Made by a program: the position numbers and the translations under genes
DNA from: Moniliella sp. 'wahieum'
Taxonomy: Eukaryota
Assembly: GCA_003971905.1 (NCBI GenBank)
Contig: RSEE01000018.1
Span: 558,001-622,000, forward strand
Length of the DNA: 64,000 nucleotides
Reading direction: 5' to 3'
Notes under the pieces: generated by a model
Seen by the model: the letters and a program-made list of their open reading frames with translations, nothing else
Database searches by the model: none
What the model was told of the DNA's origin: nothing
In this document: positions 7,071-53,753 of the stretch, piece after piece
How positions within the stretch are numbered: the first letter of the stretch is position 1
Layout: the number at the start of each line of letters is the position of its first letter

Positions 7071-8357
7071 GGCGAGGAGGCGGAGGAGGTGGTGGTGGTG
7101 GGCAGGCGGTGCGTCCGTGCCGCCGCTCCTTGGGGGTAATCAGCAACCAGCGAAGGACAGGAGGGAGCTGCGGAGCGTGCTGACGTCAGCGAGGCAGTGC
7201 AAGGGGCAGCGAGCATCCGTGCATCCGCTCCGCAGCAGCGACGCCCATCGAAATCCAGCGCAGCACGGCGCCAGCCGGCCGCCCGGGGGCGTCTGTCGGC
7301 TCTGCGTATCCACCGGAGCTCCGCCGACGTCATAACGGCAACGCGATGATCGTAATCGATAATCGATGATCGATGTCCGCCAACCAGCCACTGGCAGCGA
7401 TGGGTTGCACGACATGGGTCACACACCGCCCAGGATGCAACCGTGTCTAGTGACTAGTGACTTGCGTGTCCCACACCGCGTGTCCCATGGACGTCGCTCT
7501 TCAGGCTTCCCACAATCAGAGGAGAGCATCAGATCCCGAGGAGACCGAGAGCGGGGCTGCGAAAAAACAAAAACAAAAACACCCGCTCATGCCAGTGATG
7601 AATATTGAATTGCGATGCATGACGGATCTGAATACAATGCATCACACGTCAGAGTCCCTGTGACGCGGTGATGGCCACTAGGTCACTCGAGGCGTTGGAC
7701 GTAGGACATGGGTCATCGATGATCAAGGCATGCTGGCATGTGGCACACTGGGCAGTACTGGGCAGTGATTTTGATGTGATGCGGCCCAGAGGCTTACCTA
7801 AGGTCTTCTGAAATGCGTGATGCATGATGCATGATGCATGATGACTCTATCCCGCCCCACCTGCCGGACGAGTGGGCTGGTGCCGGCGGGGGCACTGCTG
7901 AAGCCTGCCGGGGGAGCGCTGACTGATCGGAGCAGGGCCAGGCACGTCGCGGCACAGATCGGCGCCCCGCTGGCTACAGTGCGCTGGTGGGAGGGGGTGG
8001 CCCGCAGGGCGCCAGTGGAGTGTGGGCGTGGGCGGCGGCGGCTGCGTGGCACAGACGCCGTGCCGGCGCGCGGCATGCAGCTCCCGTGGGACCAGTACCT
8101 GACATGCGCTGGGCGAGCGTTTGGCTGGGCAGCACTGCGCCACGGGGGCAGTGTGGAGCGGCCGCGGCGGACGCAAAGCTTCTGGTGCCCACCGCCTCTG
8201 CAGGCTGCTGTGCGCCGCCGGCGCACCACCCGACGGGCAGCTGTACTCAGTACTCAGTACTCGTCCTCCCTCGCCTTGACTCAGTCCAGCTCCTCCACGC
8301 GCCCCCCGCCCCCACCGCCGCTGCCTGCCCCCGACACGCCCTCGCGCCTCCGCCGCC

Positions 8358-19077: not shown

Positions 19078-21069
19078 AGCGGATGCAGGGGGTGGGGACG
19101 AGTGGGGTAGAAGAAGAGGTGTGGTGGGAAAAAGAAGCATTCGACTTCCGGGTGAGGGCATTACCGCGTTCCGGGAGTTGACCGTGACGCGTGACGGGTG
19201 ACACTCTTCGGCTCCTGGAACATTTTTCGCCCACGTGCACCGAAGTTTCAAATCACCTCGAAGCACTGCCCCAGTGGCCGGGGGATGAAGGTGGGGCTTA
19301 CCGCTGCCTCTCGCCGATCTCGTTTATCGATTTCAACGATCGTTCACCGTTCTCACAGCCCTGACAGCATGGTACCAGTCACGAAGTCACTAGCTAGACA
19401 CTTCAAGTGAAGCTTCAAGCTCTTCAAGCTTCAAGCTGCTTCCTGGGGGCACGTGTTGCTGATCATCGACAAACTCAGAATTCAGTATACTCGGTCGTGC
19501 GCGGCCCCGGCCAGCCGCGGCTACCTGTTCAGCTTAGCCCGTGGACCTGCTTTGGTTTGGAGGGAGGACGGGAGAATCATGTGGGTCTGGGCAGAGAACA
19601 GCGCCAGTAGCTGGATCGTGTAAGGGGCATATAGACAGTGATGCTGATGAGGTCCCATCCTGCTGCTCACCAAGTGGCAGACGAGGCCGATGAGGAGGAG
19701 GATCCAGATTGAGACGCTAACAGGTGGGGGGCATGGCGACACCCGCTGCGTCTACTATAGGATCAGTCTCACAACACGTGGAAAGGGTGTGTGGGCGGCC
19801 TATTGCATGATGCCTGTTGTTGGGATAATTGCGACACTGCCAGATGGAAGTCGCTTATCCACATGGGCATACATCCATCGGAGAAAACGTCTCTCATTCT
19901 TTGTTAAAAAGGCAGCATGGGTGGGAACGTACCCTAAGCAAGCATGGCGTATAACCGCCGGAGAGGATGGTGCGAAGTAGAGCAAATCAGATGAAGGCAG
20001 CAACAGCAATGATAACTGTTCATCTCACAGCTTCGTATATATGAAGACCAGGGTAATACTGCTGCAGGTCCATGTGAGAATGGCTGGGGACCACCATCCT
20101 GACGCCTAAGCAGTTCTCCCTGGGGAGGGAATGGCGAACCAAAAGAAGAGAAACCGTTCAATGCCATGAAACGAATCAAGAAGTGAAGTACGCATTCTGA
20201 GTTATAGTACGGGACTTGCCTAACAACCTAAGACCTAGATGAATCCAAGGCATTATATAATAAGATGTCAGCGCCGCGATATAAAGGGGGTTCTTCAGTG
20301 GGCTCCATAGCAGTGTGAGTGCACTTCCAATCGTAGGGAAGAGGTCATGACCAAAGATGGCGAAGGCAAGGTGACAACACTTGTGGAAGGCACAGTTCTA
20401 GGAAGTAGTAGAGCGAAGGGAGACTGCGTCCTTCTGAGATGGACTATCAATGGACTACTACGGTGCGAATTCGCTGAGCCCGCTGGGAAAGCATCTGTTG
20501 AACTGGCACGGTCCGCACTTCCGCAATGATTGCAGGATCCTGAATAGAGAGACTAGTGAACACTGGATAAAGGCTGGCAGTTTAGAGAATATTGCAACTA
20601 GTGACACTCTCCCAGCGAGAATTGGTTCGAACGACCACTGAAGAGCTCGGATACATCATACACAATGCATGATGAGGCGATTAGAACGGTCCACAATGCG
20701 GAGACTCCCCCCAGGCAAAAAATTGTCCACCCTTGCTGCCGTCAGGAATAAGGGAGACAGTTGACGATCTGGAATAATGGGCATATAGGCACCCGATCCC
20801 AGCAACTTGCACCCTTCGTGGCTCTTTAGAAAAGCAGGAGTATCAGTCGAATCCCTAGGTAATATAGCCATGGGCACGCGCTACCTAGGGTACGGGATCG
20901 GATGGCGCGATCCGGAGGGTCCTGATATCCTGGCGATCCCCTGGTTCCTTGACCCTGGTGGTGCCCCCAAGTAACCCCGCAAGATGAACGGTTAGGATTA
21001 GACGTAGCGTTCCCCCTGTCCCAGCCTTAAGCTCTGCCAATGACATGGAATCAGCCATGGGAAACGCCT

Positions 21070-21324
21070 GTGCACTTTTTACATAAGCCTCACGTCAGCC
21101 CGGGTGGCGCAGCCACCCGTCCCAGCCACCAGCAACAATCGGTGATATTATTTCGTCTTTCCAGCGTGGAAGGGTTCCAGCGTGGAACGTGGCCGGTGGA
21201 ACGGTGGCTAAGGTGGCGAAGGGGGACCAGGAGAACGGTGGCTAAGGTGGCGACGGTGGACGGGAGAACGGTGGCTAAGGTGGCGACACAGCAGACCGGG
21301 CCGTAGGCCCGGTGGTCTCCTCGT
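21070..21324 (+). mobile_element. Short non-autonomous Helitron-like repeat, copy 1
   Basis: Three internal ACGGTGGCTAAGGTGGCGA units. The 3' hairpin ACCGGGCC-GTA-GGCCCGGT (21295-21313) is followed 6 nt later by CTCGT. Homologous to 21464-21685 and 49176-49393. Confidence 0.6.
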
Positions 21325-21463
21325 ATAGTATACGGCACAGTACAATATATACAGTTGTGTCTGCGCCTTATTTCAAACGGTGAATGTGGGATCATCGATC
21401 ATGCATCATGCATCATGCATGTATCGATTATCCTTCTGCCCACACGACCAAGCCTATTTCCGC

Positions 21464-21685
21464 ACGAGGAGACCACCGGGCCTACGGCCCGGTCTGCTGT
21501 GTCGCCACCTTAGCCACCGTTCCCCAGTCCACCATCGCCACCGTAGCCACCGTTCCTCCTTCGCCACCTTAGCCACCGTTCCCCCGGTCCACCGTTCCAC
21601 GCTGGGAGGGCAAATAATATCACCGATATACTCTGGCTGCGGGTGGCTGGGAACGTGTCACGGGGCAGCTGAGGTAAAAAGTGCA
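21464..21685 (-). mobile_element. Short non-autonomous Helitron-like repeat, copy 2, inverted relative to copy 1
   Basis: 21464-21521 is the exact reverse complement of 21267-21324 (58 bp). Further shared blocks are AAATAATATCACCGAT and GTAAAAAGTGCA. Confidence 0.6.
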
Positions 21686-25760: not shown

Positions 25761-28700
25761 GGTGGTGTTGGCTGGAGAAGGGGCCAGGCGAGGCCCAGGA
25801 ATAGGGGGCGATGGGCAAGGGGTAAGAAGGGTGTAGGCCGTTGGTGGATGTTCGGTCGTTGGCTGCGCTGATTGTGTGGTCACGTCCGAGAAGTGTGTGT
25901 CGGGGTGAGAGAGAGAAGGGGGGCTGGATATATATTTGAGGTGGCAGCCCCCCACCACCAGCGCAGCCCGGCAGTAGCAATAGCTGGGCTGGCAAGCGGC
26001 CCTGGCTGGATGACTAGCTGGAAGCTGAGGAGCGTATTGCGGGGGCACACCAGCTCTCGTATCAGCCACATCTTCTGATCCCTGCGATCCATCGCATCCA
26101 TGTGCTGTCTACCCAGTCCTGATGCCGGACACCTTCGGCCTCATCGCACACAGCCCTACGCAGTGTCTGCCCTCTGGCGCCCCGGTACCCGGAACGGGAA
26201 CGGGGGCGCAATGTGGAAAGCCCAGATGCAGTATGGGAGAACAGAGGGAGCGCATACGTACAGACATGTTCTTGGGCACTTGGATCTTAGAGCTTTCTGG
26301 GAGGGTCCCTTGGGGTGTTTTGCAGTGGTCAGACAGAGCTGCTCAGGGCCCACTGTCGGAAGTGCTTGTCCTCTGGTGCCGCGGGGCGCCAGTGTCGCCA
26401 GTCCGTAGCATGCTGCGTGCGTCACCGTCCAACTGGCTCCACCTGATGCCTGAAGCCTAGTGCCTATTCTGCGTTGTATTCTGTGCTGTGCCTGGCTGTC
26501 TACGACAAGTGACTCGATGCCCACGAATCACTGGTTCACCGTTTCACCGGCCACCAGGGTAATAGGCATTACATACTCGGCGTACAGGAGGCGCCGGCGC
26601 CGTCACATGATGTCACACACCGTGTCACCGGACATCCGGCACAAGATCTGACATGTGAGACAACACCCCAGAGACTGTGGGGCCTACCCCAGCCACCACC
26701 TGGTCGCGCTCAGCCGGGTTCAGCGCTCAGGCTCTCTCTGAACATCCGAGGCGGCAGAGAGGCTGACCATTGCCCACACTGGCGCGTTGAGAATACAATC
26801 GCAGTACATACTTTGTGCACGCCTGGATTTCGCAAGAAAGACCCGCGTGTCCAGCGCGAGCGTAACTAGAAGACCCCTTTCCAGGTCCCTTGAAGCTTCA
26901 AAGCGTTAAGATTCAAGCTTCAAGCTTCATCGTTGGATGCGTGGAACGTGAAGCTTGAAGCTTGAGTACTGAAAAACTGAGTGCGAATCCCAGCGCGATC
27001 TCAGACCTCTGATGTGGGATTGAGCTTGGGCTCGGGGGTTATCGAGTTCTATAGTTATCGATTATCGATTATCGACCGGTTAGCCGAGCACCTGTGATCG
27101 ATGATCAGCATCTCGGAGTGTGAATATGCATGCACAGGAGCCGAGCGGCTGCCCCTACTCATAGGCCTGCTGTCATGATCATCATGTCCATATGCGATAG
27201 TCCTCCGGAGGGTGAGAGGAAGGCGCCTGAATGGGTTGACGCGTGACGGTAACATCTGTGACATTCATATGTGGGTTGTTGTTTTGGGAGTGCCAGCCAG
27301 CGTTGTTTGTGTACCGAACAAACCGCATCTCTGGATACAAAGACATCGTACATACTCCCCTGTACTTTGTTACGCAATGCGCAATACCAGAGATGCGTTA
27401 TCATATTCTGCACAATCAAACGCCTCCATTCCCTCTATGCAAAGCAGCTCTTTTTGGTCCACACACAGCCTCTCTCTAGCAGCGGCCCTATCCCCTATGG
27501 CGTGGACGTTGAGCCGAAGCTGTGAACGGCAAACAAGTAGCCTTTACTATGCCAAGCGTATTGGAAACGAGATGTCTCAAGCGGGCAGAAGCAATATTCG
27601 AGTCTCTACGTCATAACAAAAAAAGACGTCACCTATTAGCTTTGGCCGCCAAAAGGCTCTCCAAATGCGATTCACCATGGGAGTCATAAGGGCTGTGTTT
27701 TTGAAATGTAGAACATCTTGGCTGGCTGCATAGCCTTTTGCCATTGGACAATTACCACGACGCCAATCTCCGGCTTACTCCGGCTCCCCCACACACTCGA
27801 CGTCATGACGTCGTTAGTACTCCGCATCCCCCGAACGATTCGCGGTGTTTTGGTGTCGTTGCTGCGGGTCTCGGCGAATGACTCGATGACGCAGATTGCG
27901 CTTGGCGAGCCCGCCCCGCCCCGCCACACGCACACACCCATAACACACACCCACACACCTTTTCTTTTTTTTTCGCCCCCCCGTATTCAGCGCAAAAGAG
28001 TATAGGCAGCAACCCTGTTTTGCTGCACAATAACTCGTTACAGTTGATGCTGCAGCAGCCCTGGCCAAGAACAGTCGATCGCCATGTGTTTTAGGTATCG
28101 AGTCATTGCAACCCATACGTTCAGAGGCATGCTGCTATGATTGAGAAACACAGGGGAAACGTGCCCCGGCCTCGCTAGTTTGTGGAGATTTGAAGCAAAT
28201 CGACTTGAGCAAGTACATTACAACCTACCCTCGCAGGCCCCTGGGAAGAAGAGAGGTCTGAAATGTCGGAATACTGATAACATAACCAATTTGCGCACGA
28301 GGCCCAAACCTCGATCGATAGGTCCTCGTGGAGACTCAAAAAGCTGACGATATATATAGCCTTCCAAACCCACCCCGCGGATACTAGAATTGTAATAGGT
28401 ACTCGTCTCCTCTCACACTTTTTGCAACTTCTACTTCTCTTTTTCCCGCCACCAACTGTCTTTCCGTTCCACACTCTCACTTTTATATGGCTTCCCCACA
28501 TTGGCCCTGAAGGGACGCTTACGTCTGTACTCTAGCCCTTTTTCGGTCTTTTTCTCTTCGAACCCCATCAGCCATTGTTTGGGACGAGTGCGAGAGAGGC
28601 ATGGGCACTGCACTAAGGAGAGTTATTTTCATGTCAGAGGATTGTTGCTCGCGCGTTTGGACAGGGTCTCTTCAGTCCCTCATCAGGACTGGGAGAGCTC

Positions 28701-29401
28701 CTGTTTTCTCGCTTATATGTCTTCACTGTTCGATAGTGGCAATGCCCCGATGTAGCGAATGGCACAGAGGGGGGGGGGGGCACACACGTTAATATAGTTA
28801 TGGCCTCAGCCCTAGCCTCGCGTGGTTTTGTTTTGTTGATGACGACGATATGGCCAATACATTTCCCCTTTCAACATATGCTTTTACTCTTCAAGCTTAT
28901 CCCCGTTAACCATTACAGGATCTCGCTGCATCATAGTTTTGGACTTTTTGGTAGAAGAAACCAGCCGGATTAGATATCTGTGTGTGCTGGTGACGCTATA
29001 TATTGACCTCTATCTGCTCTCTTCAGTGGGGGTGAGAGGCCGGCCGCGATGAGGATTCTTGTTCGCTATTTACAATAGTAAACGACGTTGAACGTTCAGT
29101 TGAACACTGTACTCTGCCCGTTTCTACACTCCCGGCGGCGTATCCGGCGCGCCCCCCTGAGTCTATGCAGGTCCAAGTTTTGAAAAGCTTCAACTCGCAG
29201 GCTCGGCGAAACACAACGCTTTTGTCGACATGTGACGCGTGACGTAGCCACTATAGTAGTGACCTGCAGCGAGTGGCACTGAGTATACAGCCAATGGTTG
29301 TGCTGTGCACTCACACTGCTGCTGCGAAGTACCAAGTACTTCCTGAGTGCTGTGGCCAAGAGTGCTCCGCAGGCTCAGCCTGAGCCGCTGACTTGGACAG
29401 C

Positions 29402-29715
29402 TGACATGTGACAAGTGACATGTGACATGTGACATGTGACATGTGACATGCAGCTTGATGCATGTGCATGAATTGACAAGGTGTCAGGTAATCGATGATG
29501 TCTGAGATCTGATGCATCTGATGCATGATGCGTGATGATCGATGACATCGATGACATGTGACATGCATGACATGTGACATGTGACATCAATATCATCAAT
29601 GACGTGATGACATGTGCCATGCGACATGCGATATCTGCAAGCTGTCAGCGCTCAGGCGCTCAGCGGCGCTCAGGGCGCTCAGTTTCGGCGCCGCGCTCAG
29701 CACGCTCAGCCTGAG
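29402..29715. repeat. Densest block of 7-bp TNA-palindrome arrays
   Basis: (TGACATG)x7 at 29402-29450, one unit being TGACAAG. It is followed by TGATGCA, TGATCGA, TGAGATC and TGACATG units, then TCAGCGC/GCGCTCAG-type units. Confidence 0.9.
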
Positions 29716-32700
29716 CACCTCGTTGCCCCTCCAACCGGAGACAGCACGTCGGAATCGAGAAAAAGCAGCAAGTATGTATATGACAGGTGTCGAATGTCGT
29801 CTACGTCATGCATCTACATCATGCATATCCATCGTGCCATGTATGTACACAAAGTGGGTGTTCAAACGTTCCACTACGTTCACGTACGTTACACGTAACT
29901 GCAGCCCAGAATTGATGCAGCAGGATGCTGGATGTGGAGCATGGTGTTTCTTCTCTCACACCAACAAATAATAAGATGCAGTCCCAAACTATTGCGCAAC
30001 AAAAAAGCCATCGCACCTCGCTAATGCTGATGCACTGATGGTCTTCAAAACCACATCCGGCGGCGGAGAGACGTACACACACAGGGCTTAACAATACTTG
30101 GTACGTAGTGCGCTTGTTACTCTCCGCGTGGGCTTGCGCGACCCCCATCCGAGCCCCTCCACCTTAGATCGCTCAGTCACTCAGGGGCCTCTTTCTTCTA
30201 AGGCCTCTTTGGTTTCATATGGCCTGTGGCCTCCATCCTGAGGTCAGGCCTGAGGGCCTGAGGGCCTGACGCGTTTTATGCGTTACGCGTTACGCACCAT
30301 GCACGCCTAATGTATCACGTATCACGCGCCACATATCACGGCCCTTCCTTGCGGCGTGTGTGGTAGCGTCAGCACAAAAAGCTATTCAAAAGCTTCATTG
30401 ATCATCATTCTTTTTTCCTTCATTAATGTTGATTCGCTCTGAATCTGACTGATATATTTTGATGACAGATATAGGCGAACCCTTAGCTGTTATACAGCAT
30501 CATGTGATTATGGGAAACCAGTAGGATAATCCGACCACTGTCTGATATAGTTATTGGCTCTAGAATTAGGCGTATACTGTATGGATCTTGTACGCATAGG
30601 CCCTCATTTTAACTTTGGAGACCTGCTGCATTCTCTTCTGCTCTGCGTCCAGATCAATCGTTTGTTGCATAATGTATACTTGGCTGTGGTGCACTTTATT
30701 AACAATACACAACAAAAGCAGTCGGAAAAGGTCCCACATACTGCTGCATACACCCCGCGGGGGCTATACCGAAAACTCCAGGGCATTATATCCTGAGGGC
30801 TTGGGCTCCGGATCATCGATCCCGATCAAGTCTGAGATTCTCAGCCGCGTCCGGTCTGCCGGGCCACAGGCCCTTAGTAATTAGTACTGAGACTCAGTAC
30901 ATACTCAGTACTCAGTACCGAGTCTGAATACCCTCAGTCTGAGATCTGAGCCTTTAAAGCTTAAGGGCTTAGGCCTTATAGAATCTCTCAGCCCCTCAGG
31001 CTGGGTGTCAGGCTGAGGACTCCGCCTCCATGCGCCACAGCTGAGATATGAAATGAGTTTCAGAATAGATCTATTCCATAAATGAGTCGATACCGAGGTG
31101 GCTTTCTTGGCTTTTGAGATTTGAGAATACTACAGGTACGTACTTGAAGCTTGAAGCGTAATAAAGCTCGGATGTACGCTCCTAATAATAAGCGGTGACT
31201 AGTGACTAGTGACTAGTGAAGCTAGTGACTTCGTATTTTGTTGACATGGATGTTGAACGTTGACTAGCGCGGATAGTGGCTAGTGTGTACTGACTAGGAC
31301 ATGACGCATGAACGTCACGAACGTTGAACTCAACCGCTGATCGTACAAAAACAGGCCATACTGAAAAATACACATGCCGAATATACTTAACGGGGGGGGG
31401 GGCGTGGTACACACGTCTTCATTCCTCACACCTTCATCCCACAATGAGTTTTTGCCATATGTTTTCCTTGTTTGAACGTTATTTTGCTTGGGAAGATCCT
31501 TCTCTCTCCGTTTCCTCAATTCAACATCAACCCAATATTCCATGGGAACTAACGGAGGCATCGCCAGCACCGCAGGTATCTCCTGACTCTCTCATATGAA
31601 ATCGAAAAGCTTCCAAAAAAGCTGCCGATCACCGGAGAGGAGCGCGAAGCTACAGCCTGTGACATGTGAAGCTTGAAGCATAGGGTGTGGTACCGGGTAC
31701 TCACATGTACCCTACAACCGTGAACTTTTTCTGCGAGACATCTTGTTCTTGCTCAATCTGAAAAAAAAAACTAGGTACACATATCTTGAGAGGGGGAGCA
31801 CTAACATGCTTCAGAACCACGCACCATGCACCGTGCCTACTCGTGCTGTCCTGATGGGTTGTGGGCGCGGAGGGAACGAAAGTTTTCACAGGTGAACGAA
31901 CGCCCAGCGCTCACGCGCTCACGACAGATGTTCAAAGAAGTACGTTCAGATCTCAGAGAAGCGCCGAGAAAAGGAATGGTTTCCTACTGACGCGTGACGC
32001 GCCTCTCTATCTGAGACGTCAAAGAGAAAAGGAGTATATGTTATTAACAGGGGAGTAAACGTTAAACACTCCAGCTAAAGACTAAGCGCAGGCACTCCGT
32101 TACAATGCAAGAGCACAGTTGTTCAATGTGGCGCAACCTTTGCCGCTTTGGCAGTTTCAATATTAAGCAGTTCTTGGCGTGTGAGACAAACGTGAGACAA
32201 CCGAGACCCTGTGGATCCCTTCCATCCGTGTCCAAGGAACCCGATTGGAATAGGATCGGTTGCACCCCACTCCACCCCTCCCTTCCATTTTTCTCGGCCG
32301 TGTGGAGGACACGACACGATGCATTATCCCGTGCATGTTTTACCGAGACGCGTGACGCGTGAAATTTGGTGGCGGGGAAGGGAAAAGAAGAAAGCCCAAA
32401 TTCACAGTCGGGGCTAAGGCGAGGGTGACCAGGGTGGATACTATGGGCCAAGGGGTGCAGCAATCGTTCGTGGGGAAGAAGCAAGTGCAAAGCGGAAGAA
32501 ATAGAGGGAAAGAACGAGACGCTCGCCGAACGAAGAGACTGGAAATGGGAGCGAGATCAGCGCTCAGCCAAACTATGACACTGCGGGTCTGTTGCCTACA
32601 ATCGAGATGTGAATCTCACGCGTCGCGTCTCAACGACCTATCACCCTCCTCCTCAACGGATGTGAGGCTAACCTTTTAAAATACTTCTTGCCCTTGACAA

Positions 32701-33772
32701 CACCGAACGGAGGAGATCCATCTTCTGTTCCCATCAGTACTCAGTGTGGTGAACGAGTCACATACGTAGAGTCAACAAATGTAGGAACGAGAGAGGATAG
32801 CTTTTTTGGGAGAGGAGAGGGTGTCTCCTCTCGCATCCCCTTTCGTTTGGTCTTGCCTCGAGCTTGCCTCGAGCTCGCCTCGAGATGCGGATGTTCGTTC
32901 TCTCACGTGTTTCGATCTCGGGCGTAATGCTCTTCTGAGATCTGAATCCTATGACATGTGACCCTACTGTGACAAGGCGTGGGACCCTGAGGCCCTGAGA
33001 CCTGGTCGATGATCAGAGGGCCTTAGCAGCCTTATTTAGAGCATGCTTCACTGAACCTATAGCTAGAGTGTACCGTCTAGAATTGAGTGCGCGCGGGCTG
33101 CGGTATACCCGATACAGCCGGTACTATATATCGTCCATCCCAATACTTGTATCATGATCGATGACTTCGATGACAGGAACAAACGATCCGTGACCGGCGT
33201 GACCGCGTATTCAGACCCCCGAGACCGATTGAGCCGGGACCAGCGCAATGTATGTACCAACACTCGTATAGGTATCCCCTTCTGTATGCATCTCCGGCGA
33301 AAGTATCGCATCCGCCACAATACATTTGTTGTTACATGTTATCCATGTTATCCACCGTGCACCGCTGGCCACTTTGTATACACATGGTACAGCCATGCTT
33401 GATACATGATGCAAGACACGGCGCGAGGTCGGTGTGAGCCGCAGGCTGTCTATCGATTCTTGAAGGAGATCCACATCATGCTCATGCATCATGCAACTCT
33501 CGTAGGCGTCTGCCAACGACTCTCCTCCCGCGTAGCTTGGCAAAGGTTGGCTGAGTGCCACAAGGTCATCCATCCATCTCTTTGCAATCGGAATTACGGT
33601 TGAGGGTTAGTGCCCAATTCGCACCATACCATACGAGGGGCGTCTGATACCTGATCCGCGCCGACATAGTGGGGCATATAGTGCACGGTGCATTACAAAC
33701 TGCGTAGTGACAGAGGTTCCAGAAGCATCTCCTACCGGTATTGTGAGGATTGTGAGGAATTGGTAGCCATAC

Positions 33773-36700
33773 TTAGAGGACGCCCAGAGGGTCAGAGTTG
33801 GCTTTGGAGCGAGAGGAGAAAGTAGGATGGTGGTCATCAGCCAAGGGAGGCTGTACAGCCTCTTGGTCTCCCCAAGAACTCGACGAGTGGGACGCAACCA
33901 TTTGTGTCGGAAGCGTCGCAGTCGAGCCGAGTGAATCCGGTGCAAGGGGATTTCTACTGGCGCTCGTTGCAATAGACTCAAGGGCTCCATCACCCTTGCC
34001 TGATGACCAAGAGGCACCCAAGGGATCATCTGCGAGAGGCCGGTCGAGAGGGTGAACAGGAGGAGGGTGCAAGGAAAGCGAGGGGGCCTGGGGATTCGAC
34101 GAGTTTCCCAAGGGGTGCATTGGTGAGTAGGGCGCAGCAGGTGCTTGCTTTTGCGATCCCATCGATGAGGTAGAAGCAGTCATCTGGAGGGGGGACGAGG
34201 CTGACACGGAGAGGCGCTTGAAGCTGGTGCCTAATGGGTCACTCGGTACCTCCGCCCACGCGTTCGCTTCCCACGAGGAGACGCTGTCATCAAGCTGACG
34301 GGGAGCCGAAGAGGAGGGAACGGGTGCGGACACGTTGGGAGCGGCCTCCAAATGACTTGACGACGTATCCCACGGGTTCGCTTCCTCACTATCGCCAACT
34401 TGATCCCCAAAGAGCCATCCTTTGCCTGCAGACCACAGAGCACGAACTTGGCGTTTGCCGACCGCTGCAGGGTCCCAGATTGGGTCGTCCGAAGAAGAGG
34501 AGGGAACAGCCAGAGGTCCTGCGTCGTTGTCGTGACGCCTTTCAGAAAGGGTAGGGGCTCGATTGGCGACTTTATGAACGCCAGTCTTGGCCTTAGGCTG
34601 GTACGGGCGATATGCCAGTCCAGCATAGTCATCACGGCCAGATGAGCCAGTAAGAGAGATGGCCTCTTCCCCATCGATCGGTGGAGGCAGTGATTTACCC
34701 TGCGCCACAGCTTCGAGCCTCTGCTCGAGCCTCTTGCGCCGTGCATCCCGTTGGGCAGCCACTTGGACCTGTGCAGCACGTTCCAGATCGATAAATGCGT
34801 TCAAGTCTTGATCTGAGCGCCGGAACAGGGCCGGCCACAATCGCACATCCTTGCCGTTGGGCATAAGCACACTCGCGTCCGTCCGCCTTTGGGTGGCCTC
34901 CAATTCGGGGTCGTACTTGGGGTTCCTAAAAACCTTCTTGGTTGCGGGTGATAATAGTTCCCCCCACACGCTTGTGAGTGCAGGGAATCGGCGGCGGAAC
35001 TGGATTCGTTCGGCCTCCGTATTGAAGAGGAAACTGCCTGTCGTGCACTCATGAAGGGCACATTGCAACTCAACCAGCCAACCCGTCTCAAACTCGAAGC
35101 GGGAGGGGAATTGGCGATGGATCTGATAGACACAGTCAAGGAACTGATGAAAGACAGGTGAAATCTCCTTGAGATGGGTTACCGACTCTTGGTCCTGAGG
35201 TCCCCGCAGATTGGCCGCAACCGACTTGGTGAACCCCACAAGGCCGAGGCAGCATTGGTGGGCTCGAATCCTCCGTTCCGAGAGTCGGTGTCCGACTCGG
35301 ACTCGGAGAGGCTTGGTATTTGTCGTCGAAAAAGCTCGTGTGCGAAAGGTGGCCAGTCCGGTGAAGAAACCGATGGCCAAAAGACGCAAAGTCCTTTTCG
35401 ATCAGAACAGCAAAGCCCTGGAATGTGCGATAAAAGGGATCCAAGCAGACCTGGGCCACTGCTGAGAGCTGAGAGGTGCGATCCCATCCATCAGAGCAGT
35501 GAATCAAAACGTGAGCACGATCCACATGGACTGAACGCACGATCTTGCTTGCACCCTAAGGAGGGTGGGATGTCGTAACCAGCCCGACCGCTTAACCTGA
35601 TTCGGGTCGAGATTGGGCAGGGTGTCTTGCCCCTCAGCCCCGAAGCCTGGGGCAACGTCAGCGTCGGTTAAAGCTCGGTAATAGCCTTTAGGGAGTCCCG
35701 CATGACGTGAATTTGTCAATCCCAAGGATACCTTGTGTACCACCCGGATAGTAGTCCATCGTTTCACTCCCGCACCCTTAGCATGATTGGCGTACGCGTT
35801 GGTTGGGGGCCGCGCATCGATAATCACATTGTTGGCCTTAGCGCCATACATGGGTTGGTTGGCCAATATGGTGGGCGCTTCCGACGAATCGTAGTATCAA
35901 ACGCGCCCAACGACGAGTTCGCTATTTTCCCACCTTCCTCATTTGACCCCGAGCTTGGAGAATGAGTGGGAAGACCACCAGAAAAGAGGTGGGAAGTAAA
36001 GATGGCGTCGACTAACTTCTCGTCCTGAAACGCTGCGGCTGTATCGTAGTCCCACCAAAGGCTGGGATGAGCGAGTGATGCTGCCCAAATGAGCCCAGTG
36101 GAGGTAGGTCAAGGCAGGCAGACGAGACTTGGATCGAAATTTGGCTCCATGTGAAGTGTCGCGTCACTTATCGCCGAAGGAACAACCAGGAAGGAGGGAT
36201 AAGTGGAGCAAAACTAGACCCAGGTGTGTCAGAAGGCATGCCGAGAAAGGCTGTGGAGGATAAAGAAGAAAGGAGTAACGTACAGTATGGTGGGAATTGA
36301 GCGTAGTGACGCGCCAGGCCTGGGTGCGCGACCACCTCCCTGACGCTCAAACTCCCTCTTGCATCGTACACGTTCCAGCCCGATTCGCTCAACTCGCATC
36401 GAGGGAAGCGTCTTGGGTGGCTACCGAGAGACTACGCGGGTGGACGCAGCCAGCTGGTCGACGCTCTGAGAGCACAGTGTGGGTCCGAAGGAATTCGAAC
36501 ACTGCCTGGCTTGTGTCTGCTCGTCGGCAACGTACAGAGTGAGCGACTCGAAATTCTTGAGTTGCACCCAGACAGGAAGGCCCGATAGGAGGGGAAATGC
36601 GTCGCGCCTGAGCCCTACCGACGGGACGCTCGCAAGGCGGCTGACAGTCCAATAAGATGGAATGAGAGGGAAATGGTGTCCCGGGCGGGCAGAAAAGATG

Positions 36701-38758: not shown

Positions 38759-39198
38759 GCCGGCACGGGAAGCAGAAGAAGGTGGTGGTGGGGGGGGGGG
38801 GCGGCCGACGCTGGCAAAAAAAAAATCACCCCATTGCGGCGCTGGCTGGGCGCGAGACAGGCAGAGCGCAGAGCGCAAACGACGATGAAGTTGAATGTTC
38901 AACCTGCGAGAAGAAACGAGGACAGCCGATGAGACTGCTGTGTGATGTGCGACGTGTGATATGCAATGCGTGGTGATGCAGGTGATGGGTATATTGATGG
39001 ATGAAATTGAAATCAACTGGCTGTGCGGCTGTGCTACGGCATGCGACAGCCTGCGACGAATCACGGCTGGCGGCTGACGTGGCGCCCCGCCCACAAACCA
39101 GATGGACATCGCCGGCCGCCGCTTTTTCCTCACCACCTCCAGGCACTTCCTGGCCCCGCTCCCCCTGCTCCCCGCCGCGCCCTGAGGTCTGCTTCGAG

Positions 39199-47211: not shown

Positions 47212-49175
47212 AGTCGGTGAGGCGCTGAGCAGTCCTGGTTTCACGCGTCTTCCGGAAGCGGTGGCCGTGGTGGTGAGCAAGAAGATGTGCATTTGTTCTG
47301 AATCCCCCTGGGCTGTGTGTGGTAGGCTTGACCACTGCAGGTGGGTTGAATGTTCCTTGCCTGAGACCCGGCGCGACTGCCACCGTGAAGCCGGTGAAGC
47401 TTGAAGACGAGAAGGCCCGAAAGCTGATGCACTGAGGGTGCGCCAGCCGGCACACATCGTTTCATCACCCCCATCCCACCCGCTGTCTCGCCTGGGTCCG
47501 CTCGGGTCTGACGCCGTCTTGCTCCGCTGCTTACGCGGACCACAGGCACCTCTGCGAAATCATATCACACAGCCGGCAGCCTGCCGAACAAGGCCGGTGT
47601 TGGCAATGGTATCAACGTCAACACAGCGTCAAGGTTCAAAGCGTTTAGCGTGAACACATCGAACATGATTCTAAGCAGGGCGTAATGGGAGGTGGAAGAG
47701 CCTGGTGGAGCACACAGTGAGAAGCTGCATCCCACCACTGCCACCGCCATATGTGCCAATCTCATTTTCTTTTACTTCGGGTTCAACGTGTTCAAAACGT
47801 TCAGATGTCGTCAGACGAGTATATAGCCACAGAGTGTGGAAACTAGAAGCCGATTGCTGGCCTCGATGGTCACCGTGTTCGTTGGGCCTGACTGTCACTA
47901 TGTCATGGAAGTTGATCACAGACTTAATCACAACTTGCTCGAGGTTGTCCACATGTATATGTAAGCTAGTTAAACGTTAAACGTTAACAAGGCGCTCTAA
48001 GATAACCCTAAGCGCTATAATTATGGTGCGAAACAGGAAGAGAGTCGGCGTATTAGCGCAGAGCGTAGCGGTACTACCACACAATATCTGGCTAACTGAC
48101 GGCAACACGTGATGCACGAGATGGCCCCAACGGAGTGGGAACGAGCGAGAGGCTTCTGACCACGAACGCAAAGGTGAACGAAATCTCCAGACGAAGAGTA
48201 TGTCGCCTGGTGTCGCTCGTGACGCGTGACGTTGAAACGCGTGAAGAGAAGAAAACCAGAAGGAGAGGGAGAAAAGCGACAACAGAGAAGAGCACACAAA
48301 TTGTGACCGTGTGATGGATCGAAACGGCGCACGATCGCGAGGACAACGCAATACTAGCGTAGTGCCGACGCATCATGGATGATCTAGATGATCGATGATC
48401 GATGAGGCGACCTGAGTAAGAGTCTGAGTATACTATAGTGCACAATCATTAATCATCGATATTGTAGCGACGCGTGAAAAGGCTCTGACCTGGAGACACC
48501 TAGTCTCTAAACCACAGACGATCAGCGAGTAGAAATCAAGTAACGAGGTGAGCGAGAAGAAGGGGAAGGGGGAAGGAGAGGTGTTGGCGAAGAGGACAGA
48601 GCAAGCAGTGGGACAGGAATGTACACGTGTGGCCTGCTGGCCTGCTCGCGGCAACTCGAGGGTCTAGCTTTCACATCTACAAATCACAGGCAAGGCACCG
48701 GTGGGTGACATGGCAACAATATCGATCATCTCCAAGTTAATTAAGTCACAGCAGTACGAGCTCTACAGCATCAGAGCGAACCGCGGTTCACTTGTGCGGA
48801 TGCAGACGCAGATATCAGAAGGTGAAAACAGACGGATGATCGATGAAGAGAAGAACAGTGGAACCCATTGGACAGGGAACGGATTCCGGGCGGAAGCCCG
48901 GAGCCGTACCCGTCCACAAAAGCCCGGTACGAGTGTGAGAGATAGTGACACTTCGAAATACTACACAGCGTTACCTGAGGCCTGATGTTACAGTATACAC
49001 AGCCTTTTACTGACGGTACTGACCGGTGACCGGTGACCTCTCTCTCTCGTATCAAAAAACCATGTCAGTCCCATTAATAGACTAATGGGGAAAGGTTTCA
49101 CTTCTAATAGTACTAGAGACTAATAGCACAGTAGGACTGTCAAACCTCAGGACCTCAGGAGGCAACTTCTCCTCC

Positions 49176-49393
49176 ACAAGGAGGACTACCACCGGGCCTA
49201 CGGCCCGGTCAGCTGGGGCTTCGCCCCAGCTGTGCTGCGTCGCCACCTTAGCTACCGTTCCCCCTTCGCCACCGTAGCCACCGTTCCACCGTCGCCAACA
49301 CCGACATAGAGAAATAATATCACCGATGCTTGCTGCTGGCTGCGGGTGGGGGTGGCGTGGAACGTGGCACGGGGCAGCTGATGTAAAAAGTGC
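49176..49393 (-). mobile_element. Short non-autonomous Helitron-like repeat, copy 3 (diverged)
   Basis: Same ACCGGGCCTACGGCCCGGT hairpin, TCGCCACC(T/G)TAGC(C/T)ACCGTT units, AAATAATATCACCGAT and GTAAAAAGTGC. On the minus strand it ends in CTTGT. It has an extra hairpin CAGCTGGGGC-TTC-GCCCCAGCTG. Confidence 0.6.
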
Positions 49394-51294
49394 CAGGACG
49401 ATAGTAACCACTAATCGATCTTCCACAGTGCGTGCGTCGGTGGGCCCCGAACGGGACGTCGTAATCCGTGCCAGAAAAGTGGAGCATGCGTCTGGAAGAG
49501 CGACATCCGTGCGCTCTGAGATCTGACTGCTGATCTCTCTCAGCGTTATGAGACCTGAAGTCCTCATGGTCCTCGACGGTGCTGCAACTGCACTGGCGGT
49601 GGTATAGTGGTCTAAGCAGCAATGCCTACAGAGAAACAACAAGCAGCTAGTCACCACCAGGGTGGCTACTAGGCTGCGGAACAGGAAAACAGAAGAGAGA
49701 AAACAATGGAATTCTTATATTACGCCTGAGGAGGGACAGAAGGGACGTTGGCCAAAACACGCGAGCTACCCGCGGTGGCTAAACACATCAGTGCCCTCGT
49801 TGTAGCCTAGCAGACTCCCTATATGATAGAGCAGTATACGCTCGGCACTCGCCCCCTCGCGGGGCCTCCCCGCGAGTGACACACGCCTGCCTTGTTCTTT
49901 TGCGCTTAGGACGCCTGAGAGAGGGGGAAGCTCTGATGATCGATGACTGATGATGACCACGGTATAGATAGGCAAGTAGCTAGTAGCGGGGGGGAGAGTG
50001 TGAAATACCACATGGATCGCGAGTGTCTCGGCACTAAACTTTGTGGTTTTATCTGAGATCATCTGTTGAGAGGTATATAGGGGTCTTCCGTGGATACTGT
50101 CGTAGTATTAGTTGATGGAACCGAACTGGATTCGCGCGCATGATAATTTAATTCGCCCCATAGCAAGACGTTATCGCGGCATCGATGGAGAGAGTAACTG
50201 AGTTCACTGAGTACTCCATCTGAGTAGTGCTAGTGAGCTGAAGTAGTGACACTAGCGACTAGTGACTAGTGATTAGTGAGGCATGATGCCGAAGAGACTT
50301 GAAGCTTGAAGCTTTGGAGCTTGAAGCTTGAAGCTTATTGAAGAAGACTGAAACAGTTTTGTGAGAGGCTCAACGTTTGACGTGGTTGACATGTTGACAC
50401 CTACGCCACCAACCTCCGACGGACATTCATTTGCATTCTACGATGCGAGGCCGAAGAAGAGATTTTCGACAGGCCGTATTTCCATCTCCTAAAAACATAG
50501 GTGAGCGTGAAAAGCATATGGCCAGGTGGTTGGAGTGTATTGTAAAGATTCAACGTATACATTTTGAGCACGTTCGTTGGTCTCACAGTCTCAACAGTAA
50601 CTCAATACAGGATTCATATTCACATGTGACAGTATGCTCTCTGTTCTCTCTTTGGTCCAGCGTTCAACATGACGTGCTCGCACCTTGCTGCAATGACTAG
50701 TATCTAACTCTATTCAAAACAAAACACAAACGTCCGCAGAAACTCACTCAGTACTCAGTACTCATCTCAATAGATCTCAACGATCATCGATCCTCGTTAT
50801 CTGCATCATGCATCACTATAGTCACTAGTCACTTTCGGTCTAAAGCATGTTCTGCATTTTTGATGCATGTCAGTTGGACGTTGGCGGCGGAACCACATGG
50901 ACCCGATGCAGTCGTCTGGTGGGAGACGGGCGGGAGGTGGGGAACATGAGATCTGAGACCTGAGACCTGGGATATGAGAACCGGACTAGCCGGTAACAGG
51001 GTACCACCACAGGTTTGCTTTATCGATACGCGTCCTCTCCCTCAGAGATACAGATGGCTTTTTGTTGAAACGTCTCGCCCTTCACGATACGGAAGACATC
51101 CCGTTTGTTCAACGTTGTTCAGGCCCGCCTTAGGCCTCAGGGCCTCAGCAGAAATAAAGCAGCGGAGTCGTTGGATCATTGATAGAAGTGGTTTCTGGAC
51201 TGGTGGTTCGGTACCGAGAGATTATCGAGTATCTAACAGATTCCAAGAACCGTGTCAACAATTAAATTAGGCGTGAGATCGATGTGAGAGATAG

Positions 51295-51425
51295 CATGGG
51301 GACATGAGGACATGGGGCATGGGGACATGGGGCATGGAGGCATGGCGACATGGACATATGGAGACGTGGGGACATGGGGACAGGTGACATGGAGACATGG
51401 AGACATGGGGACAGGTGACATGGAC
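51295..51425. repeat. Degenerate minisatellite of roughly 8-bp GACATGGR/CATGGGG units
   Basis: catggggacatgaggacatggggcatggggacatgg...gacatggagacatggagacatggggacaggtgacatggac. Confidence 0.85.
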
Positions 51426-53677
51426 AGGGTGTGATGGTGTTTTCACGGTTACCGGTTAGCCACTGCCGTGACGCGTGACGCGTGAATATCAATCTTCGTC
51501 CGACAGGTCACGCGGTCACCCGGTCACGCGTCGGCGGCCCACATGTCACATCCGCCGATGCGCCCATGTCCCATGCTTCACATGTGATGCATGTGACTAG
51601 GAACTCATGCGGACACACGGCCTACAGGTCCCATGCATCACAGGGGTTAGCGCTAAGCTTAGCGGGCAAGCCACGTCTGTGAAGCAAGCATATGCTCTCC
51701 AGAAATCCACATACTCTCGGGGCTTTTTGTACCACGCGTCTGTCCCGGGCCTGAGCAGTGCCTGAGCGCTCCCAGGCCTGTGCCTTGGGCCTGAGGTAGC
51801 CGCGGTGCTGAGGCGCTGAGGCGCTGAGGGTCCTTGGGCCTGGCCATCGAATCAGGGTCAGCTTCAGGGGGGCTGCAAATGTACGTAACGCGTAAGCGCT
51901 AAGCGCTAAATACAGTAATCCGGCAAGCCGGCCTGCCCCGGAGTGCGGCTGTGTGCCTTCTTAGTGCCGTCCTGTGCCGCCTTGCCGCCTCAGGGCTGCC
52001 TCCGCGCCGCAACAGCCGCAACACCGGCGCCCGGCCGGCGCCGCAACCAGTCTTGGCATTTGCCTCACTTGATTTCGCCCTGTCTCGCCTCCGATCAGAG
52101 GGAGGCTTTAGTGCGCATCAGTCCGAGGCTCCAGCCCAGAGTCCAGTGGCGCTGTCCGCGTTTAGCGCTTCGCCTGCAGCATGAATCACGTGGCACATGC
52201 GCCTGCGCCACAATCTACCCTGCTTCAATGGAGCAACTGCCGAAAACTGACAGCGCCTATAGGAGCAGAGAGGTGCCAAGTTTGAGCGGCTGAGCCTCCA
52301 GATATCTTTAGAGCTTGAGAGCGTGAGCGTTCTGGCTGCACGGACTGCTTCCATGTGCTCTGCTAGTGCGTGCAAAGGTGGACGTTGAACGTTTGAGCTT
52401 GAATCGCCCTGCCGGGGCGGATGCCGATGATCGAGGACTGGGGCCGCATGAATAATCGAGGATGTCAAGATCTGAGACCTATTTGCGTCTCGGAAAGCCG
52501 GTGTGCTTGGCAAACCCGCAGTGGTGCGACCATCATGCATCGTACACACCAACCATCGATCATCTCGAACATCGGGCGGGCGCGGGGGCGTTGCCATCAT
52601 GTCATGCTTTTGTGTGTGATTGCATGATGTTCGAGGATTAATGCGCGCATTAATGAGGCGTCTTCCGCCGGTCAAATGTGCTATCGGGATGCCCAAGATG
52701 GACAATGGCGATTCCCCCGTCTTCATTATTACGACGGGGGGGGGACGGACGCACAACGAGAGCGGCAAGTGAGCGTCAGTTCACACTCAAGATGAACGAA
52801 CGGAGGGGTGCTGAGTAACTCAGTACTGAGTGAGTACGCAGTACAGAGTGTACTGATGTACTGTGTAGTCTCACGACCGAGCGGGCGCTGTGCCAGCCTA
52901 AGCTTTTCACCAACCAGCCAAGTGTGGCGTTTCGTGGAAAAAACGAGGGCTTCGTCCGTTTATCAAGCTTCAAGCTAAGCGTCACTAGCGTCACCACGAT
53001 GGAATGACGATTATCGATCATTAATCATTGGTCAACTACTGACTGGTAGTCACTAGTCACTGTCACTGCAGCACTGCTACCGCTGCTGTGCGAGGTGGAT
53101 TAGGCGTTGGCCTGCGTTCAATTGCCGGGGGAGGGAGATTCAGAATACGAGGTGCTGCGGATAGATGCTCTGCCCCTTGCGAGACACTCGTATGGCTGTT
53201 CGCAGCGCGCAAGCACTTAGTACCCTCAGTAATCAATGCGAGAGTACTCAGCTAAGTGCCCTGTGGCTCCGCTCCGTGGCTCAGCCCCAGTCTTGGGCCT
53301 TTCCAACACTGTGTGTAGGATACGACGCCCCCTGATCGTGTACGTACACCTCACCTCGCCAAACACCTTATCCCACCCACTATGCACTGTGCCACTCCAA
53401 AGGAGAACAAGGACGCAGTGCGGCGTTCGAGTCTTGTGCTGTACACACAGCGCGCCCAGTATCAGAGACATCCAGTTTCTATAGTGCTAGTTCAGCGTAG
53501 GCATCGCCTTAAAGGTGCCGCCACTCCTCGTCCGCCACGGAGGTTCGTCTTTCGTCCCCGCCTCGCTCAACGCACACTCCCTTCTTTGTCCTTTCAACCC
53601 CTGGGCCTTGCTCATCCACATCGCCGCGCGCTCCCAATCCCACAGTGCGCACAATCCAACCAGTGTTGTTGGTCTAG

Positions 53678-53753
53678 GTGAGCAGACTGCGCTCAGGAGT
53701 GCCTTGGAGCTCCCCTGTGTACTAACACCCTCATGCTCTTCATCCTCTTCTAG
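53678..53753 (+). other. Probable 5'-UTR intron ending immediately before the ATG at 53754
   Basis: GTGAGC donor, perfect TACTAAC branch point, pyrimidine tract, TAG|ATG. Confidence 0.7.

Follow-up and report, generated by a model that had tools for sequence, protein, structure and literature searches.

Hairpins are formed on the flanking DNA by hAT, Transib and Mutator-like elements and in V(D)J recombination (RAG), and host enzymes such as Artemis probably open these flank hairpins, which are then end-joined, leaving footprints at the site (PMC5499845). Among fungi, DNA transposons with 7-bp target duplications are represented by hAT7 of rust fungi and Kyakuja of Laccaria bicolor; hAT7 groups with Ac and Tam3, in the superfamily that uses flank hairpins, and Kyakuja has CA..TG ends and no inverted repeats (PMC12730594, in the available sections of which no target consensus and no footprints are given, the supplement having consensus sequences without target lists). 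Here we describe a 64 kb stretch of contig RSEE01000018.1 (positions 558,001 to 622,000) from Moniliella sp. 'wahieum', hereafter called the window, which carries many short units, each made of a TNA triplet, a 4-bp palindromic core and a second copy of the same triplet, and arranged singly or in chains with a period of 7 bp. Most of the cores are coded by the two bases on one or the other side of the chain, the duplication extends over 7 bp, the junctions can combine parts from both flanks, and the same rules recur in other DNA. We read the units as excision footprints of a cut-and-paste DNA transposon at TNA sites, a reading to which we give a probability of about 0.62.

Abundance and specificity of the units

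Unit counts were compared with those in 50 dinucleotide-preserving shuffles of the window. Units of the form TNA-pal4-TNA (pal4 being a 4-bp palindrome), with the same N on both sides, number 96, against 2.52 +/- 1.42 in the shuffles (maximum 5). All four TNA triplets contribute (TGA 58, TCA 22, TAA 9, TTA 7), every other triplet has a count of 6 or fewer, and an excess of odd palindromes centred on ANT, CNG or GNC was looked for in the window and none was found. The enrichment of 4-bp cores alone (96 observed versus 2.65 expected; 13 versus 9.0 for 2-bp cores and 4 versus 0.55 for 6-bp cores) agrees with hairpin opening at a constant offset of two bases. As cores, 14 of the 16 possible 4-bp palindromes are in use.

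The 96 units make up 74 chains, of which 59 are single, 9 double, 5 triple and 1 quadruple, and there are four perfect mixed chains, that is, chains with more than one kind of core. Tandem Repeats Finder reported dozens of period-7 arrays, and in every case the consensus unit is a rotation of TNA plus a 4-bp palindrome. The longest uniform array is the following:

29402..29450, forward strand: TGACATG repeated 7 times (Tandem Repeats Finder score 91)

Flanking bases specify the cores

A preliminary description of this DNA had singled out six chains in which the TNA triplet stays constant while the core switches from one complete palindrome to another, and had taken them as a tape-like record of successive events, each adding 7 bp at a TNA site that is itself duplicated. 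All six chains are present, with positions that agree to within one base, and an imperfect unit overlaps the end of the first:

26949..26972, forward strand: mixed chain TGA AGCT TGA AGCT TGA GTAC TGA, partial fit to the flank rule described below
26968..26982, forward strand: imperfect unit ACTGA aaa ACTGA, then GT; period 8, matched length 5
21392..21415, forward strand: mixed chain TCA TCGA TCA TGCA TCA TGCA TCA, full fit
31660..31676, forward strand: mixed chain TGA CATG TGA AGCT TGA, full fit
51886..51909, forward strand: mixed chain TAA CGCG TAA GCGC TAA GCGC TAA, fit on the left side only
50806..50831, forward strand: chain TCA TGCA TCA CTATAG TCA CTAG TCA, full fit except for the CTATAG unit
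31254..31267, forward strand: TGA ACGT TGA CTAG, without a closing TGA, fit on the left side

Under the flank rule, a chain consists of m copies of the palindrome coded by the two bases to its left, followed by n copies of the palindrome coded by the two bases to its right. The rule is fully obeyed by 62 of the 74 chains, which together hold 78 of the 96 units, and the chance that a single unit obeys it is about 12%. A two-base flank match is found downstream only in 14 chains and upstream only in another 14, and is missing on both sides in 3 of the 74. In rule-following chains, the left-coded core always stands ahead of the right-coded one. Since the flanks template the core, no site can hold more than two kinds of core, and the left-coded kind stands first regardless of which event happened earlier. 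In each of the four mixed chains in the window, the two kinds of core stand in two separate blocks, without interleaving.

Flank coding accounts for most mixed chains. At 21392, the left flank GA codes for TCGA and the right flank TG for TGCA (two units in this range), and at 31660 the left flank TG codes for CATG and the right flank AG for AGCT. The chain at 50806 has the left flank CA, coding for TGCA, and the right flank CT, coding for CTAG, and its CTATAG core equals CTAG with two additional central bases. The ACGT core at 31254 is coded by the left flank GT. At 51886, the left flank CG codes for CGCG, and the present right flank, AT, does not code for the two GCGC units. For the chain at 26949, the GT behind the next TGA (26978-26982) codes for the GTAC unit, once the imperfect unit is read; the imperfect unit keeps 5 of the 7 duplicated bases and has a 3-base filler.

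The switching of cores between complete palindromes next to a constant TNA is as it had been described, but the choice of palindrome is not free, being coded by the flanks in 78 of the 96 units. The idea of an independent palindrome for each unit, and with it a tape-like record of events, finds no support, with 62 of 74 chains flank-coded and the order of cores fixed. Other parts of the preliminary description are supported: units are gained 7 bp at a time at a TNA site, and the TNA is directly duplicated, with N identical on both sides in 96 units and different in 19 (about 5.9 different ones are expected by chance). Simple slippage, as had also been argued, cannot create the units or the mixed chains. 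Cores within mixed chains differ at 2-4 of their 4 positions and each is still a perfect palindrome, and because the differing cores stay perfect, point mutation of a uniform array fails to explain such coordinated differences.

The commonest product in the window is TNAab + rc(ab) + TNAab (rc, reverse complement) or its mirror image, which amounts to a 5-bp direct repeat with a 2-base inverted copy as its spacer. A matched length of 5 among period-7 runs occurs 89 times, against 40 in the shuffles. Pairs of identical 5-mers starting with TNA and separated by two bases number 132 in the window versus 5.0 expected, and 113 of these 132 pairs have the predicted spacer, an inverted copy of the two neighbouring bases. 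Among the 19 other spacers, at most 1 could have been copied from the TNA end itself, so that palindromic bases of this origin are essentially absent.

Among the 19 units with differing N, 12 have the complementary base, including those at 7713, 19408, 29089, 30244, 50620, 51578 and 52820. Such units (for example, TCA GTAC TGA) are perfect 10-bp palindromes in which the flank rule is still kept, and G/C swaps account for 10 of them, more than point mutation would produce. A wider target consensus, such as CGTNACG, was also considered for the sites in general, and was dropped as not significant.

The duplicated segment and composite junctions

Junctions that combine both flanks are predicted by one arrangement only, in which both flanks bore flank-coded overhangs, crossed in the way that a 7-bp duplication would give. 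For the junction test, a 7-bp target pqTNAab was taken to be duplicated, with ab + rc(ab) as the left overhang and rc(pq) + pq as the right, and the predicted junction was a prefix of the left overhang joined to a suffix of the right. All TNA...TNA pairs were tested, with random flanks as the control:

Spacer of 4 bases: 91 of 152 pairs fit, control 14.2
Spacer of 5 bases: 10 of 66 pairs fit, control 0.6
Spacer of 6 bases: 7 of 85 pairs fit, control 0.1

At spacers of 7 and 8 bases, no pair in the window fits the prediction. Examples of 6-base junctions are GA TGA ca-tcga TGA CA, TG TTA tc-catg TTA TC and GG TGA tgca-gg TGA TG, and these can be read in another way, as intact 7-bp direct repeats split by two inverted bases. 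When any 7-mer followed by two palindromic bases and the same 7-mer was sought without bias, 15 matches were found versus 0.6 in the shuffles, with TNA at positions 3-5 in 8 of the 15. Trimmed products stay in register with these repeats. Intact repeats, and a run of units with junctions that hold parts of both overhangs, are listed here:

29541..29556, forward strand: intact 7-bp repeat GATGACA, tc, GATGACA; TGA is central and tc is the reverse complement of the first two bases
29508..29523, forward strand: intact 7-bp repeat TCTGATG, ca, TCTGATG, from the 7-mer scan
33337..33352, forward strand: intact 7-bp repeat TGTTATC, ca, TGTTATC, from the 7-mer scan
38972..38987, forward strand: intact 7-bp repeat GGTGATG, ca, GGTGATG, from the 7-mer scan
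29640..29720, forward strand: run of GCGC-TCA units with periods of 7, 8 and 9 (extra G, GCG or GG), the junctions with parts of both overhangs

From these repeats, the duplicated segment is 7 bp (nnTNAnn) and not 3 bp, and after trimming only the central TNA survives on both sides; the earlier view of TNA alone as the duplicated site was not borne out. Period-8 variants, such as GCTGAG-GC-GCTGAG and TGAGGG-CC-TGAGGG, are a minority class and fit an occasional 8-base stagger. The repeat at 38972-38987 represents a 9-bp gain within a long open frame upstream of a deoxyhypusine synthase domain, and a gain of this size would keep the reading frame.

Recurrence in metagenome loci

The sequence rules hold also in unrelated, fungal-like metagenome contigs. 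A contig scan with one 17-base seed taken from the window gave at least 121 loci, and after removal of two overlapping loci (L021 and L085), 119 loci totalling 413 kb were analysed; the results given for them here and below apply to the matches listed. In several of these loci, additional units with different cores occur at 0.3-0.8 per kb versus a background of about 0.04 per kb. Of their chains of non-seed type, 41 of 62 obey the flank rule, and the 21 that disobey it are close to the number expected by chance for 413 kb. Mixed chains were found four times, and all four have two core types in two blocks that are never interleaved; three of them (two in L004 and one in L117) obey the flank rule on both sides, and the one in L017 obeys it on one side only. 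Composite junctions are present as well, with 19 of 487 pairs fitting at 5 bases (2.6 expected) and 3 of 610 at 6 bases (0.5 expected).

Some of the loci encode proteins of fungal type (an AreA-type GATA domain, a family-2 peroxidase and a fungal kinase), and others look bacterial and lack the signature. The whole of L002 is 88% identical to L067:514-1752 over 1.28 kb, and the two differ by one TCAAGCT unit, one CCTCAAGG unit and several other indels of 4-22 bp near TNA sites.

Distribution of units and neighbouring features

Open frames of the window gave gene matches to NADH-glutamate synthase, a SUR7-like protein, a RhoGEF, S-adenosylmethionine synthetase, SCP2, myotubularin, deoxyhypusine synthase, glucosidase II beta, eIF3L, a Stealth-like protein, a GH16 hydrolase and a kinase with a C1 domain. 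These matches are eukaryotic, and the genes are broken across several frames. The window is intron-bearing nuclear DNA, which is probably fungal. Open frames of at least 150 codons hold only 10 of the 96 units, though such frames cover 59% of the window. Three places are rich in units:

26600..33500: hot region 1, with 47 of 96 units (2-kb bins 26001-34000), GC 0.48-0.55 and almost no long open frames
47900..53100: hot region 2, with about 27 of 96 units (bins 48001-54000)
7340..8270: small hot spot, with 7 units

Other frame-poor stretches (20-24 kb and 44-46 kb) have few units. This clustering would fit elements that hop locally, as hAT elements tend to do, or that favour certain open regions.

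Several other repeats and compositional features were noted. A run of 11 G lies within hot region 1 (31392-31402). The DNA between 8000 and 10000 has a GC content of 71%, numerous imperfect repeats rich in C (periods 6, 20 and 30-32) and long open frames that overlap on both strands. An 8-bp tandem array, CATGGGGA x 16.6, occupies 51295-51423 (80% match, higher-order periods of 23-39); CATG is present in it and TNA is absent, and it does not follow the footprint rule. At 21063-21684 there is a foldback-like element with ends that begin GCACTTTTTAC, and a half-copy of it is located 28 kb away at 49188-49393. Its arms (21233-21324 and 21464-21555) are 92 nt long and 96% complementary, with 9-mer subrepeats, and the mixed chain at 21392 is located in its central loop. 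For the foldback-like element, a duplication of 7 bp or of TNA could not be recognised.

Proposed mechanism

In the proposed mechanism, a transposon would insert by a 7-bp staggered cut centred on TNA, and would then lie between two copies of pqTNAab. Excision would leave each flank as a covalently closed hairpin, and a host nuclease would open it two bases 3' of the tip, with the flank duplex ending exactly at the TNA; a two-base offset is the habit of Artemis-type hairpin opening. The paired bases of the duplication left on each side would then be 7 - 2 x 2 = 3, the TNA, and the opened ends would carry self-complementary 3' overhangs of 4 bases, ab + rc(ab) on the left and rc(pq) + pq on the right. 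These overhangs would be unable to pair with each other, and end-joining would usually retain one whole and discard the other, giving either pq-TNA-ab-rc(ab)-TNA-ab or pq-TNA-rc(pq)-pq-TNA-ab, each with a net gain of 7 bp. The two mirror forms of the +7 product are equally frequent in the window, as the footprint model expects. Where parts of both overhangs were kept, products of +8 and +9 would arise.

Because the TNA is regenerated in two copies, a site could be used repeatedly, and re-insertion at either copy would lengthen the chain. Arrays would stay uniform because, within a chain, both flanks of each TNA code for the same core, and a mixed chain would represent a site that had seen both left-coded and right-coded outcomes. 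Replication slippage may add copies to arrays that have already formed. What the sequences themselves show is the flank coding, the duplication of 7 bp, the composite junctions and the recurrence of these rules in other DNA; the element, its hairpins and the route of repair are the parts of this model that we infer.

A number of observations weigh against excision footprints. Neither the window, with 112 open frames, nor 64 open frames from the metagenome loci listed gave any transposase domain. Likewise, no inverted-repeat element with a flanking nnTNAnn 7-bp repeat was found in the window and the 119 listed loci, about 477 kb of DNA altogether, and the six inverted-repeat candidates seen there were all artefacts of arrays or of low complexity. 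The published consensus terminal motif of hAT7 occurs at chance level in the 64 kb window (3 matches versus 3.8 expected), and the target pattern (7 bp, T in third and A in fifth place) differs from that of classic hAT elements (Ac-type), which have an 8-bp target with T in second and A in seventh place. Positions outside the TNA have no significant target preference (p = 0.26 and 0.10), and the density is very high for footprints, with an average of 1.5 units per kb that rises to 5-7 per kb in the hot regions. The sole orthologous pair among the loci listed, L002 and L067, differs in unit number only and offers no pre-insertion allele, and neither an empty nor a filled site was seen in the window or these loci. 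Present flanks do not fully explain 12 of the 74 chains, including the one at 26949, where both AGCT units are not coded by them. Finally, the 12 complementary-N units are not predicted by the simple model, and would need a longer inverted tract or some other route.

Alternative explanations

A template switch could do without a transposon. After a nick or break at TNA, the growing strand would copy 2-3 bases of the opposite strand and return, leaving a 7-bp direct-inverted-direct micro-duplication. The observed product does have this form, with mirror centres 3.5 bases apart, on N and on the middle of the core; a longer inverted copy would yield the 12 complementary-N units, and no element was found. 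We nevertheless regard a template switch as unlikely. It leaves the absolute need for T-N-A unexplained (CNG, GNC and ANT triplets are without excess), as well as the retention of N in 96 of 115 cases, and it requires a loop-free turn-around without microhomology at the core centre. Nor does it predict the intact 7-bp direct repeats with two-base spacing, or the junctions in which the palindromes of both flanks are combined in crossed order.

Less probable again is a host nuclease, transposase-derived or otherwise site-specific, that would cut at TNA with a 7-base stagger and hairpin ends, repair then writing the unit without any element moving. The sequence rules would be the same as those under the transposon model, and both the strong clustering of units in particular non-coding regions and the lack of an element in the roughly 477 kb of window and listed loci speak in its favour. 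Known hairpin-forming reactions, however, close one side of the cut as a hairpin and leave the other blunt, and two hairpinned ends with the same 7 bp need a prior duplication, which insertion of a transposon supplies naturally. The window showed no candidate gene for such a nuclease.

Ordinary slippage of pre-existing 7-bp odd palindromes, together with point mutation, is very improbable as the origin of the units and is already contradicted by the data. In its favour, uniform arrays reach 7 copies and the number of units is not the same in L002 as in L067; slippage probably contributes to the growth of arrays. The modal matched length is 5, however, and not 7 or more, and because the commonest product has only 5 matched positions, most units are not tandem duplications of a 7-mer; in addition, 2-4 coordinated changes separate the cores of mixed chains, and enrichment is confined to TNA-centred units.

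An element with a 3-bp TNA duplication (PIF/Harbinger-like or CACTA-like; such duplications occur in the IS5 and PIF/Harbinger groups) that left two bases of each inverted end behind, in the fashion of Tc1, would automatically make a 4-bp palindrome and is the closest formal version of the free-core idea in the preliminary description, but it is almost certainly wrong and already contradicted, with cores coded by the flanks and not by an element in 62 of 74 chains, 14 of 16 palindromes used, 7 bp duplicated in the intact cases (two bases beyond the TNA on each side) and no further downstream sequence shared by units with the same core.

Some variants of the hairpin scheme were tried and set aside. 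A 5-bp duplication (Transib-like) with random hairpin opening was dropped, as the palindromic bases do not come from the TNA end. Hairpin schemes modelled on piggyBac or telomere resolvases, which place the TNA in the loop, would yield products with a period of 5, and such products show no enrichment. As for possible intermediates, a 5-bp tandem duplication and TNA plus the palindrome alone were either not enriched or only weakly so.

Implications

One may go on to suppose an undescribed and very active lineage of hairpin-type transposons, or a host nuclease derived from one, that acts in fungi at TNA with a 7-base stagger and leaves scars in such numbers as to be a main source both of intergenic growth and of 7-bp arrays bearing palindromes. 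This broader proposal is tentative, and we think it more doubtful than the footprints themselves. Were it true, the scars would form a countable register, site by site, of past insertion and excision events, and a comparison of scars between strains could measure transposition rates and the natural outcomes of end-joining. If the footprint reading itself holds, the microsatellite-like 7-bp arrays of these fungal genomes would be stacked transposon scars and not products of slippage, which would explain, for purposes of annotation, a conspicuous class of repeats that repeat finders list merely as period-7 tandem repeats. Unusually clean natural data on target choice would become available, with TNA central in a 7-bp stagger, and the scars would record both the opening of hairpins at a fixed two-base offset and the choice made by end-joining between two incompatible overhangs. 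It would also follow that a rare or vanished element can still reshape non-coding DNA, with more than one event per kb, and that a simple sequence rule would serve to recognise such scars in any genome.

Comparison with known systems

Full-text searching of the literature found no account of arrays of TNA-centred 7-bp palindromic footprints, and no mention of such motifs was found in the smut-fungus genome papers PMC5106213 and PMC4824034. The units share a number of features with the footprints of hAT elements (Ac/Ds, Hermes and the fungal Ascot-1) and with the P nucleotides of V(D)J recombination: the target duplication remains in two copies, the flank ends serve as templates for short palindromic additions, and trimming of the ends is variable, with occasional extra bases and repair by end-joining. 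Compared with hAT, the duplication in the window is 7 bp and centred on TNA instead of 8 bp, the outcome is unusually uniform in that one whole 4-base overhang is kept and the other lost, and the footprints occur in tandem arrays at more than one per kb with no element seen. The likeness to hAT7 and Kyakuja lies in a 7-bp target duplication in fungal elements (PMC12730594); the terminal motif of hAT7 is at chance level and no transposase domain was found in the 64 kb window.

Short template-switch mutations (the four-point model and quasi-palindrome correction) are small direct-inverted-direct rearrangements that give perfect short palindromes. In contrast to the units, they are not tied to one trinucleotide, have no intact 7-bp repeats and do not pile up in arrays. 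Heptanucleotide microsatellites resemble the arrays of the window in forming period-7 tandem repeats of variable copy number; they differ in that the unit in the window is made de novo, from five local bases and a 2-base inverted copy, and the arrays switch unit as the flanks dictate. The component mechanisms are known, and what is new is the geometry (7 bp, centred on TNA), a junction that is nearly deterministic, the way the units stack into arrays, and their density.

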